From an uncultured Actinomycetes bacterium (lineage in GTDB: Bacteria; Actinomycetota; Actinomycetes; S36-B12; CAIYMF01): DNA of 32,000 nucleotides. Under the pieces are notes generated by a model that worked only from the letters and a program-made list of their open reading frames with translations, did not search any database and was not told the origin of the DNA. Position 1 is the stretch's first letter, and the number at the start of each line of letters is the position of its first letter. The DNA is taken from the NCBI GenBank assembly GCA_963843975.1, contig CAWJMG010000003.1, positions 360,001-392,000 of the forward strand, read 5' to 3'. This document shows positions 6,640 to 9,916 of the stretch, piece after piece. The position numbers and the translations under genes are program-made.

Positions 6640-7659
6640 TCAGGTCTTCGCCAGGCCGTGCTCGGCGAGCGCCGGCATCACCTTCTGCGCGTACGCCTTC
6701 AGGGTCGAGTCCTGGGCGTCGTGCTGCAGGTAGATGGCGAACTGGTCCACCCCGAGGTCGCGCAGGGCCTTGAGCCGTTCGATGTGAGCCTCCGCGGGGC
6801 CGAGGACGCAGAAGCGGTCGACGATCTCGTCGGGCACGAACTCCACGTGCGCGTTCCCTGCGCGGCCGTGGGAGTTGTAGTCGTACCCCTGACGGCCGGC
6901 GATGTAGTCGGTGAGGGCCTGCGGAACCGCGGCACCGCCTGCGCCGTACCTCTCCACGATGTCGGCGACGTGGTTGCCCACCATCCCGCCGAACCACCGC
7001 ACCTGGTCGCGCTGGTGCGCGATGTCGTCGCCGACGTACGCCGGGGCCGCGACGCAGATCTTGACCGACATCGGGTCGCGGCCGGCCTGCTCCGCCGCCC
7101 TTCGCACCGCGGCGATGCTCCACTCGGCGATCGACAGGTCGGCGAGCTGCAGGATGAAGCCGTCGGCGACCTCTCCAGTGAGCGCCAGCGCCTTCGGGCC
7201 GTAGGCAGCGACGTACATGTCGAGCTGGCTGCCCTTGCTCCAGGGCAGGCGCAGGTGGCTGCCGTTGTGGTCGACCGACCGGCCGTTCGCGAGCTCGCGG
7301 ATCACGTGGATGCTCTCGCGGAGCTCGGCCAGGGTGGACGGCCGGCCGTTGGTCACCCGCACCGCCGAGTCGCCGCGGCCGATGCCGCAGACGGTGCGGT
7401 TGCCGAACATGTCGTTGAGCGTCGCGTACGTCGACGCGGTCACGGTCCAGTCGCGCGTGGCCGGGTTGGTGACCATCGGGCCGACGATGACGCGGTTGGT
7501 CTGCGACAGGATCTGGCTGTAGATGACGTACGGCTCCTGCCACAGCAGGTGCGAGTCGAAGGTCCAGACGTGGGTGAACCCCGCGATCTCGGCCTTCTTC
7601 GCCAGGTCGACCACCCGCCAGGCGGGCGGGTTGCACTGCAGCACGACTCCGAAGTCCAC
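6640..7659 (-). CDS. LLM-class (luciferase-like) flavin/F420-dependent oxidoreductase
   Basis: The ORF 6640..7806 was trimmed to the GTG at 7659, which is preceded by AGGAG. The product VDFGVVLQCNPPAWRVVDLAKKAEIAGFTHVWTFDSHLLWQEPYV...GIGRGDSA... has a TIM-barrel LLM signature. It lies 8 nt downstream of the dihydropyrimidinase stop. Confidence 0.85.
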   Translation of the reverse strand: MDFGVVLQCNPPAWRVVDLAKKAEIAGFTHVWTFDSHLLWQEPYVIYSQILSQTNRVIVGPMVTNPATRDWTVTASTYATLNDMFGNRTVCGIGRGDSAVRVTNGRPSTLAELRESIHVIRELANGRSVDHNGSHLRLPWSKGSQLDMYVAAYGPKALALTGEVADGFILQLADLSIAEWSIAAVRRAAEQAGRDPMSVKICVAAPAYVGDDIAHQRDQVRWFGGMVGNHVADIVERYGAGGAAVPQALTDYIAGRQGYDYNSHGRAGNAHVEFVPDEIVDRFCVLGPAEAHIERLKALRDLGVDQFAIYLQHDAQDSTLKAYAQKVMPALAEHGLAKT

Positions 7660-7667
7660 GCCAGCTC

Positions 7668-9083
7668 CTAGGTGAGGTACGACGAGAGGCCGCGCTTGAC
7701 GAACTGGCCGTGCCCCTTCGATCCGAGGTACTCGCCGCCGCGGACGACGACACGACCGCGCGACAGGACGGTGTCGACGCCGCCGTCGATCTCGTACCCC
7801 TCCCACGCGGAGTGGTCCATGTTCATGTGGTGCGTCTCGACCGAGATGTGCGTCTTGGCGAGCGGGTCGTACACGACGACGTCGGCGTCGGCACCCGGGA
7901 CGATCTCACCCTTCCTGGGGTGCAGGCCGAACATGCGCGCCGGGGTGGTGCAGCAGATCTCCACCCAGCGCGAGAGCGAGATGCGGCCATCGACGACGCC
8001 TTGGTACAGCAGGTCCATCCGGTGCTCGACGCTCCCGATCCCGTTGGGGATCTTGGAGAAGTCGCCGACGCCGAGCTCCTTCTGCTCCTTGAAGCAGAAC
8101 GGGCAGTGGTCGGTGCTGACGACCGAGAGGTCGCCGGTGCGCAGGTAGCGCCACAGCTCGTCCTGATGCCCCTCCTGCCGCGACCGCAGCGGCGTGGAGC
8201 AGACCCACTTCGCGCCCTCGAAGCCCGGAGCCGAGAGCTGCTCCTCGAGGGAGAGGTAGAGGTACTGCGGGCACGTCTCGCCGAACACGTTCCAGCCCTC
8301 GCCGCGTGCGGCCGCGAGGGTCTCCACGGCCTGCTTCGCGGACATGTGCACGATGTAGAGCGGCGCCCCCGTGATCCGCGCGAGCATGATCGCCCGATGG
8401 GTGGCCTCCTCCTCGGTCTCCCAGGGCCGCGTGAGCCCGTGGTAGCGCGGGGACGTCTCGCCGCGCGCGAGCGCCTGGGCGACGAGGACGTCGATGGCCG
8501 TGCCGTTCTCCGCGTGCATCATGATCATCGAGCCGTTCTGCGCCGCGGTCTGCATCGCGCGCAGGATCTGGCCGTCGTCGGAGTAGAAGACGCCGGGGTA
8601 GGCCATGAAGAGCTTGAAGCTCGTGATGCCCTCGGACACGAGCTCGTCCATCGCCTTGAGCGAGTCGTCGTCGACGCCACCGATGATCTGGTGGAAGCCG
8701 TAGTCGATCGCGCAGTTGCCGCGCGCCTTCTCGTGCCAGGCAGCGAGCCCGTCCTGCACCCGCTCGCCGGCACGCTGGACCGCGAAGTCGATGATCGTCG
8801 TCGTGCCCCCGTGCGCCGCGGCGCGGGTGCCCGTCTCGAACGTGTCCGAGGCGAAGGTGCCGCCGAACGGCAGCTCCATGTGCGTGTGCGCGTCGACTCC
8901 GCCGGGGACGACGTACTTCCCCGTCGCGTCGATGACCTCGTCGACGGACGACGCGAGGTCGGCGCCGAGCGATGTGTCTCCCGGCGCGAGCAGCGCCACG
9001 ATGCGCTCGCCGTCGATGAGGACGTCGAGAGGCTGTGCGCTGACCGGCCCGATCACGAGGCCGCCGCGGATGAGGGTCGTCAC
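7668..9083 (-). CDS. hydA: dihydropyrimidinase / D-hydantoinase
   Basis: The 471-aa ORF has the metal-site HxH in GGVDAHTHMELPFGG, the carbamylated-Lys context SFKLFMAY, and MMHAENG and STDHCPF. Its GTG start overlaps the upstream stop (GTGA at 9080-9083). Confidence 0.93.
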   Translation of the reverse strand: MTTLIRGGLVIGPVSAQPLDVLIDGERIVALLAPGDTSLGADLASSVDEVIDATGKYVVPGGVDAHTHMELPFGGTFASDTFETGTRAAAHGGTTTIIDFAVQRAGERVQDGLAAWHEKARGNCAIDYGFHQIIGGVDDDSLKAMDELVSEGITSFKLFMAYPGVFYSDDGQILRAMQTAAQNGSMIMMHAENGTAIDVLVAQALARGETSPRYHGLTRPWETEEEATHRAIMLARITGAPLYIVHMSAKQAVETLAAARGEGWNVFGETCPQYLYLSLEEQLSAPGFEGAKWVCSTPLRSRQEGHQDELWRYLRTGDLSVVSTDHCPFCFKEQKELGVGDFSKIPNGIGSVEHRMDLLYQGVVDGRISLSRWVEICCTTPARMFGLHPRKGEIVPGADADVVVYDPLAKTHISVETHHMNMDHSAWEGYEIDGGVDTVLSRGRVVVRGGEYLGSKGHGQFVKRGLSSYLT

Positions 9084-9916
9084 GGCTGCACCAGGTCGCC
9101 GTAGGCCTCGGGCCGACGGTCGCGGTAGAAGGCCCAGCGGTTGCGCACCTCGGTCAGCAGCTCGAGGTCGAGGTCGCGGATGACGAGCTCGGGGGAGTGG
9201 GTGTCGGCGACGTCGCCCACGAAGGCGCCCTGCGGGTCGACGAAGTACGACGTGCCGTAGAAGTCGTCGTCACCCAGGTCCTCGATGCCCACGCGGTTGA
9301 TCGCGCCGATGAAGTACTCGTTCGCGACCGCGGCGGCCGGCTGCTCGAGCTTCCAGAGGTACGACGACAGCCCGCGCGAGGTGGCCGAGGGGTTGAACAC
9401 GATCTGCGCACCGTTGAGGCCGAGCGCGCGCCAGCCCTCCGGGAAGTGCCGGTCGTAGCAGATGTAGACGCCGACCTTGCCGACCGCGGTGTCGAACACG
9501 GGGAAGCCGAGGTTGCCGGGACGGAAGTAGAACTTCTCCCAGAAGCCCTTCACGTGGGGGATGTGGTGCTTGCGGTACTTGCCGAGGTAGCGGCCGTCGG
9601 CGTCGATGACGGCCGCGGTGTTGTAGAGGAACCCGGGCTGCTCCTGCTCGTACATAGGCAGGACCATCACCATCGACAGATCCCGGGCGAGCGCCTGGAA
9701 CCGCTCGACGATGGGACCGGGCACAGCCTCGGCGTACTCGTAGAAGGCGGGGTCCTGCACCTGGCAGAAGTACGGCCCGTAGAACAGCTCCTGGAAGCAG
9801 ATGACCTGGGCCCCCTGGGCGGCTGCCTCGCGCGCGTAGTGCTCGTGCGCGACGATCATCGATTCCTTGTCGCCGGTCCACGAGGTCTGGACGAGGGCGG
9901 CTCTGACCACGGACAC
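9080..9916 (-). CDS. beta-ureidopropionase-type nitrilase-superfamily C-N hydrolase
   Basis: The ORF 9080..9967 was trimmed to the GTG at 9916, which has GGAGG 6 nt upstream. The Glu-Lys-Cys triad contexts are CFQELF, YRKHHIP and VYICYDRHFPE. Position immediately upstream of dihydropyrimidinase fits this call. Confidence 0.85.
   Translation of the reverse strand: MSVVRAALVQTSWTGDKESMIVAHEHYAREAAAQGAQVICFQELFYGPYFCQVQDPAFYEYAEAVPGPIVERFQALARDLSMVMVLPMYEQEQPGFLYNTAAVIDADGRYLGKYRKHHIPHVKGFWEKFYFRPGNLGFPVFDTAVGKVGVYICYDRHFPEGWRALGLNGAQIVFNPSATSRGLSSYLWKLEQPAAAVANEYFIGAINRVGIEDLGDDDFYGTSYFVDPQGAFVGDVADTHSPELVIRDLDLELLTEVRNRWAFYRDRRPEAYGDLVQP

Follow-up and report, generated by a model that had tools for sequence, protein, structure and literature searches.

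An F420-type luciferase-like oxidoreductase as the proposed first enzyme of reductive pyrimidine catabolism in Actinomycetota

Reductive breakdown of uracil and thymine begins with reduction of the pyrimidine ring, and the known variants of the enzyme for this step, the NADPH-dependent PydA, the NADH-dependent PreT/PreA, and the clostridial ferredoxin-dependent PydAc, form a single set of homologues (PMC7332683). In the mureidomycins, the C5=C6 bond of uracil is reduced in a step that genetically requires SSGG-03002/NpsU, a putative F420/FMN oxidoreductase (PMC10714638). Here we describe an operon on a stretch of 32,000 nucleotides from an uncultured Actinomycetes bacterium (contig CAWJMG010000003.1, positions 360,001 to 392,000; hereafter the window), in which the genes for a C-N hydrolase and a dihydropyrimidinase are followed by a gene for an oxidoreductase of the luciferase-like monooxygenase (LLM) class. 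Judging from sequence, the operon probably encodes the reductive pyrimidine (Pyd) pathway, with the LLM enzyme standing in for the non-homologous PydA as an F420H2-dependent uracil/thymine reductase. Because the LLM gene stays beside the pathway genes across Actinomycetota while the usual first enzyme is absent, the LLM enzyme is the likely catalyst of the first step.

The window is high-GC DNA (~72% G+C), and the nearest named relative, Longivirga aurantiaca, has a 97% identical LLM protein. Three tightly packed, translationally coupled genes lie on the minus strand at the positions that a sequence-only reading of this DNA had assigned to them: the C-N hydrolase (9080..9916), the dihydropyrimidinase (7668..9083), and the LLM oxidoreductase (6640..7659). 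Both junctions described in that reading are seen as well. The C-N hydrolase TGA (9082-9080) overlaps the dihydropyrimidinase GTG (9083-9081) in a GTGA, and the dihydropyrimidinase stop codon TAG (7670-7668) falls within a TAGGAG, leaving 8 nt to the LLM GTG at 7659. The C-N hydrolase frame is open back to 9967. Position 9916 is a reasonable start, given a GGAGG (9926-9922) 5 nt ahead of the GTG and a Pfam domain that would start at residue 5. All three reading frames are backed by a third-codon-position G+C fraction of 0.85-0.95. The dihydropyrimidinase is identified as the PydB of the pathway by TIGR02033 (552 bits, cut-off 393). Its nearest solved relative is a D-hydantoinase (4kqn, 506 bits), and its translation shows the HxH, carboxylated-Lys, His, His, and Asp motif positions. 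The C-N hydrolase is a nitrilase-superfamily N-carbamoyl amidohydrolase (PF00795, 223 bits) and a probable beta-ureidopropionase. Among solved structures it scores 184 bits against N-carbamoylputrescine amidase (5h8i), 182 against Drosophila beta-alanine synthase (2vhh), and 171 against human beta-ureidopropionase (6ftq), with the D-carbamoylases much more distant at ~105 bits. It falls below every NCBIfam equivalog cut-off (AguB, 247.8 versus 410), and it is the genomic context that favors a PydC role.

The sequence-only reading had remarked that no gene for the first step is present in the window and had proposed looking for pydA and preA homologues in the whole genome. This search, over an assembly of 4.19 Mb in 3 contigs that is 93% complete, bore out the remark, with no PydA or PreA found either in the window or elsewhere in the genome. 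The single gene of the genome with a DHO_dh domain (PF01180) encodes a class-1B PyrD (NF005574, 371 bits versus 269) and fails the PreA model NF006183 (124.6 versus a cut-off of 335). A tblastn search of the genome with Escherichia coli PreA and PreT returned only this PyrD and one other match, of 27% identity. RutA was not found in the genome either, the best match to TIGR03612 reaching 66 bits against a cut-off of 498. What the genome does hold is an FbiC gene (524 bits) adjoining a CofD gene (367 bits), along with two genes for glucose-6-phosphate dehydrogenase of the F420-dependent type (Fgd), both above cut-off at 580 and 430 bits. With FbiC, CofD, and two Fgd enzymes the genome can therefore make and reduce F420, and the cofactor side of the earlier proposal stands on this set of genes.

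To see how the LLM gene is distributed, an evenly drawn sample of 401 Actinomycetota genomes was searched for TIGR03842 (the family of the LLM protein), PreA, dihydropyrimidinase, and CofD. TIGR03842 was found in 82 genomes, nearly always as a single copy, dihydropyrimidinase (TIGR02033) in 121, and CofD in 242. These counts include six unpublished genomes, of which G088 and G318 are positive for TIGR03842, dihydropyrimidinase, and CofD; the others are G120, G001, G048, and G336. Leaving them out lowers the three counts to 80, 118, and 236, and the conclusions are unchanged. One locus from these genomes, L014 (G318), entered a single analysis. PreA was matched in 1 of the 401 genomes, and this sole match (L135; G253:C37:2341-3522) carries an in-frame TAG. 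Dihydropyrimidinase is present in 81 of the 82 TIGR03842-positive genomes versus 40 of the 319 negatives, and the one positive genome where it was not found is a 600-contig assembly with the LLM gene at a contig end. The co-occurrence of this LLM subfamily with dihydropyrimidinase, which the sequence-only reading had named as a check, came out in favor of that reading, and the two genes are usually adjacent. According to coordinates read from the searches, they lie within 10 kb of each other in 70/82 genomes. Of 80 named loci, 65 preserve the full gene order (C-N hydrolase, dihydropyrimidinase, LLM). Another 4 have only the last two genes and 11 the LLM gene alone; all 11 of these LLM-only loci are cut short, with less than 2.7 kb of upstream flank.

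The association also holds when the rest of the cluster changes. In a second architecture, common in one family with ~3-Mb genomes, a single strand carries dihydropyrimidinase, a class-III aminotransferase, an M20 carbamoylase (TIGR01879), an NCS1 nucleobase symporter, and the LLM gene. Here the M20 carbamoylase replaces the C-N hydrolase, and the LLM gene thus survives the exchange of the third enzyme for an unrelated one. Clades with 48%- and 41%-identical LLM proteins retain amidohydrolase neighbors. Linkage in every neighboring LLM subfamily was considered and rejected on the example of P0154, whose 42%-identical LLM gene stands in an unrelated isochorismatase and amidase context, so the association is not general to all neighboring LLM subfamilies. 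A metagenomic locus (L148:2728-15022) has a 41%-identical LLM gene flanked by a dihydropyrimidinase-like gene and a gene for a C-N hydrolase, in a cluster that also holds a second LLM gene, an FAA-family hydrolase, two coenzyme A (CoA)-transferase subunits, another amidohydrolase, and an aminotransferase.

Clustering of the neighbors in 100 loci shows what else accompanies the LLM gene. A class-III (beta-alanine-type) aminotransferase is present in 51 and a CoA-acylating methylmalonate-semialdehyde dehydrogenase (MMSDH) in 43, and further neighbors include an NMT1-type ABC importer and a MocR regulator. This set is the rest of the extended Pyd pathway. The frequency of aminotransferase and semialdehyde dehydrogenase genes could also be taken to mean that the LLM enzyme works further down, as an F420-dependent, PydE-like malonate-/methylmalonate-semialdehyde reductase or another carbonyl reductase, with the first enzyme unrecognized or the dihydropyrimidines imported. 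Many characterized F420-dependent LLM enzymes are indeed alcohol or sugar dehydrogenases or ketoreductases, and Adf, Fgd, and FGD2 are among the structural matches of the LLM protein. We nonetheless regard such a downstream role as quite improbable. The LLM gene is tied far more tightly to dihydropyrimidinase than to either the aminotransferase or MMSDH, and clusters with MMSDH already have a means of disposing of the semialdehyde. The operon in the window is bare, with no adjacent aminotransferase, and elsewhere in the genome the cluster aminotransferase has no close orthologue, the best match reaching 38% identity. A downstream reductase would, moreover, leave the first step unexplained throughout the phylum.

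As a control, 12 dihydropyrimidinase loci were taken from the 40 genomes that have a dihydropyrimidinase homologue but no TIGR03842. Within ~8 kb around these loci there was no C-N hydrolase, M20 carbamoylase, aminotransferase, MMSDH, or NCS1 gene. Every Pyd-type cluster of the sample carries the LLM gene. Xanthine-dehydrogenase-type genes adjoin 2/3 annotated control loci; in L136 (9535-10404) and L137 (5056-11191) the dihydropyrimidinases are near genes for a molybdopterin-dehydrogenase FAD subunit, XdhC, MobA, and a carbamate-kinase-like protein. Such xanthine-dehydrogenase surroundings recall those of HyuA in the reductive uric-acid pathway (PMC12507026). In one genome (G371, L141:3215-6609) another LLM gene, 26% identical, lies directly upstream of a 56%-identical dihydropyrimidinase homologue and a second amidohydrolase, perhaps a parallel pairing of an LLM enzyme with a hydantoinase that serves a different substrate.

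That other LLM subfamilies adjoin hydantoinase-like genes, as in L141, bears on the question of what the enzyme in the window acts upon. The LLM enzyme might reduce or oxidize some other cyclic ureide or imide in place of uracil or thymine, for example a modified pyrimidine, a dihydro-heterocycle, or a 5-substituted hydantoin. Such a substrate is conceivable given the promiscuity of both the hydantoinases and the family of these amidohydrolases. TIGR02033 enzymes also include D-hydantoinases, and the C-N hydrolase, besides reaching no equivalog cut-off, matches N-carbamoylputrescine amidase and beta-ureidopropionase equally well. An F420-dependent LLM reductase has also been proposed to act on a reduced purine in Chloroflexota (PMC12507026). 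We still consider a different ureide unlikely. The class-III aminotransferase, MMSDH, and NCS1 neighbors fit disposal of beta-alanine and beta-aminoisobutyrate together with nucleobase import, the D-carbamoylases lie well below the 171-184 bits of the better matches, and no other enzyme in these genomes accounts for uracil reduction in Actinomycetota. The sequence-only reading had left two reactions side by side, F420H2-dependent reduction of the pyrimidine ring and oxidation of a hydantoin or dihydropyrimidine. The first is favored by the uracil/thymine-pathway neighbors and by an amidohydrolase nearer the beta-ureidopropionases, and the second has lost ground on the same evidence.

The LLM protein itself points to F420. 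It matches TIGR03842 with 594.8 bits (cut-off 295.45) over profile positions 1-329 of 329. This curated family, named as LLM class F420-dependent oxidoreductase, is a hypothetical equivalog with no assigned function. The public names of more than 8000 homologue clusters at 90% identity read only "TIGR03842 family" or "probable F420-dependent oxidoreductase", and an Atlas lookup gives Actinomycetota as the commonest phylum. The luciferase-like domain PF00296 scores 214.5 bits. Next in the NCBIfam ranking come Mer and further F420-dependent LLM families, none of which reaches its cut-off, and the 14 best matches are F420 families barring one FMN-type family at 46 bits. All 11 PDB sequence matches are F420 enzymes, including 9hav, which is listed only as luciferase-family and is a glucose-6-phosphate dehydrogenase dependent on F420 according to the fold-search listing; these matches contain no solved structure for the TIGR03842 subfamily. 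An AlphaFold (AF2) model built on 24 family members (pLDDT 85.9, pTM 0.88) has alternating strands and helices, consistent with a (beta/alpha)8 fold. In a Foldseek search with this model, Mer with bound F420 was the best match (TM 0.79-0.85), and the top 27 matches were all F420-dependent LLM enzymes, with FMN enzymes ranking lower. Assignment of the protein as Mer was rejected on score (TIGR03555, 118.2 versus 348.7; NF002619, 129.9 versus 276) and on the Val found at the Mer Glu6 position, and assignment as PydA/PreA on the lack of any PF01180 match in the protein. Invariant polar residues of the family are D35-S36-H37, W40-Q41, T64-N65-P66, T68-R69-D70, and R95-G96-D97-S98, followed by N229-H230, Y259-D260-Y261, H264, and C284.

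The phylogenetic profile agrees with the fold. An intact CofD is present in 78 of the 82 TIGR03842 genomes and fragments of it in 3 more, while 164 of the 319 negatives have CofD; the TIGR03842 gene is restricted to genomes with F420 biosynthesis. The three fragmentary CofD genes are at contig ends or broken by stops. In one of them (G384:C1:1460816-1461613) cofD is in three pieces with a TAG, the LLM cluster being present, and in another (G193:C9:71137-71439) it is reduced to its first 102 positions, 13 kb from the LLM gene; each is either a pseudogene or an assembly error. Import of F420 through a TIGR03868 transporter was considered for the four TIGR03842 genomes without intact CofD and rejected, as none of them has the transporter. 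A putative F420-0 ABC-transporter binding protein (TIGR03868, 439 bits; L082:4987-6036) does occur less than 10 kb from the LLM cluster in 11 of 100 loci.

Both fold and profile bear on whether the LLM enzyme could instead be an FMN-dependent, RutA-like oxygenase that cleaves the pyrimidine ring oxidatively, a suggestion that draws on the membership of RutA in the luciferase-like superfamily and its action on uracil. We hold this to be very improbable. The LLM protein has no match to TIGR03612 at E 0.001 or better, on which ground its assignment as RutA was rejected, and FMN-type LLM families reach at most 46 bits. FMN enzymes come below 27 F420 enzymes in the structure search, and the gene is confined to genomes that make F420. 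A ring-opening oxygenase would also make the neighboring dihydropyrimidinase redundant.

The reading preferred here is reduction of free uracil or thymine with F420H2. F420H2 is an obligate hydride donor that at ~-340 mV is thermodynamically on a par with NADPH, and it is known to serve in the reduction of activated C=C bonds. Mureidomycin biosynthesis provides a genetic precedent for an F420-type enzyme reducing uracil (PMC10714638). In the proposed mechanism, the two Fgd enzymes of the genome would supply F420H2, and the LLM enzyme would use the C5 hydride of F420H2 to reduce uracil or thymine at C6. An active-site acid would protonate C5, the invariant candidates being His37, Asp97, His230, and Cys284, and the product would be 5,6-dihydrouracil or dihydrothymine. 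The dihydropyrimidinase would then open the ring, and the C-N hydrolase would free beta-alanine (or beta-aminoisobutyrate), NH3, and CO2. The chemistry is best read as that of PydA with another cofactor and another fold. The suggestion of the sequence-only reading that the LLM enzyme supplies or replaces the redox step is supported by the absence of pydA and preA, by the co-occurrence with dihydropyrimidinase, and by the F420 capacity of the genome. The activity itself, including substrate, direction, actual cofactor, and catalytic residues, is predicted.

Several points weigh against this proposal. In 12 of the 82 genomes the LLM and dihydropyrimidinase genes are more than 10 kb apart, on separate contigs, or without a dihydropyrimidinase found: they lie within 20 kb in 3, ~50 kb apart in 2, and on different contigs in 6, with dihydropyrimidinase not found in 1. 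Related genomes in the sample are not independent, and the co-occurrence statistics therefore overstate the support. Gene linkage cannot fix which redox step the LLM enzyme performs, and its predicted use of F420 is deduced from family, fold, and phylogenetic profile. No enzyme assay, mutant, or expression data for any member of the family were found in the literature searched, and an in vitro assay of the mureidomycin enzyme failed (PMC10714638). No paper joining F420 and pyrimidine catabolism was found in a search that did not cover subscription journals, and a 2021 review of F420 has nothing on pyrimidine catabolism.

The DNA flanking the operon adds some detail on its boundaries. A perfect 15-bp inverted repeat with a 6-nt loop (6585..6620) lies 20 nt past the LLM stop codon and separates the LLM gene from a convergent plus-strand open reading frame ending at 6574. 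This hairpin is likely to mark the 3' end of the operon; it has no T-tract and was therefore not listed by the terminator scan. On the other side, a 150-nt region 5' of the operon (9917..10066, minus strand) contains a conserved block and an inverted repeat. The block, of ~55 nt (10016-9962, minus strand) and beginning TGTGAACATCT, is nearly identical in Longivirga aurantiaca and partly retained in a metagenome-assembled genome with an 81%-identical LLM protein. The inverted repeat (8 bp, 10019-10026 / 10041-10048) is not conserved in the nearest relative and is not proposed as an operator. A promoter and terminator scan gave no consensus sites, with no sigma-70-type site upstream of the operon; a TTGCCG-17 nt-TTAAGT arrangement there is a candidate promoter by inspection of the sequence. 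The flanking genes, an HrpA-like helicase, two proteins without a family match, a glyoxalase-like protein, and a PlsC-type acyltransferase, are unrelated and have no clear link to the operon.

One product of the proposed route raises a question about CoA. The genome in question has PanC, and PanD was not detected in it. Counted without the unpublished genomes, PanD is present in 11 of 79 TIGR03842 genomes versus 57 of 80 genomes without the gene, and PanC is present in 63 of the 79. In 52 of these carriers PanC occurs without PanD, so the route might supply the beta-alanine for CoA, and the operon in the window may do so as well. The PanD counts carry strong lineage effects, and four strong matches to PF00282, the pyridoxal-phosphate-dependent decarboxylases, are found in the genome and could serve instead. 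Taking these results together, we lean toward the broader view that TIGR03842 is a new, non-homologous class of dihydropyrimidine dehydrogenase and the normal entry to pyrimidine breakdown in Actinomycetota, present in about one-fifth of the sampled genomes in a phylum where PydA is essentially missing, and that in many PanC-positive lineages with no detectable PanD, including this genome, it may be a housekeeping source of beta-alanine for CoA. If so, F420 would gain a role in central metabolism, specifically in the primary nitrogen and nucleobase metabolism of soil, freshwater, and marine actinobacteria, and perhaps a tie to beta-alanine and CoA supply. Pyrimidine degradation without a canonical first enzyme would be explained across the phylum, and a very large uncharacterized family would have a function. 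The step, so far known with NADPH, NADH, or ferredoxin as electron donor, would gain F420H2 as a fourth and, with it, its first enzyme of an unrelated fold. The enzyme could also be used alongside the hydantoinase process in F420-driven biocatalysis of dihydropyrimidines and beta-amino acids.

Comparison with known systems helps to place the proposed enzyme. With PydA, PreTA, and PydAc it shares the proposed reaction, the place in the pathway, and the position in the cluster beside PydB and PydC. It has no homology to them, however: theirs is an FMN site in a DHO_dh (PF01180) domain combined with Fe-S clusters, whereas the LLM protein has the PF00296 TIM-barrel domain, lacks Fe-S and FAD domains, and is predicted to use F420. 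Mer (1z69, 8qpl) is the closest enzyme in both sequence (E 2e-31, ~26% identity) and fold (TM 0.79-0.82), and it carries out an F420H2-dependent hydride transfer to a pterin-bound one-carbon unit. Genomic context and host differ between the two, as does the residue at Glu6 of Mer (the position changed in the E6Q entry 8qq8). RutA is likewise a luciferase-like superfamily enzyme and acts on uracil, but it depends on FMN and O2 and opens the ring. The remaining two systems are compared by description only. SSGG-03002/NpsU, encoded in the mureidomycin and napsamycin clusters, tailors a uridyl-peptide antibiotic and not the free base (PMC10714638). The uric-acid clusters of Chloroflexota have an F420-type LLM gene in place of a PydA/YgfK-type reductase and beside a ring-opening amidohydrolase, the same logic as in the cluster described here, although their putative F420-dependent "yanthine" reductase is part of a purine pathway, in a different phylum, and is itself a bioinformatic proposal (PMC12507026).

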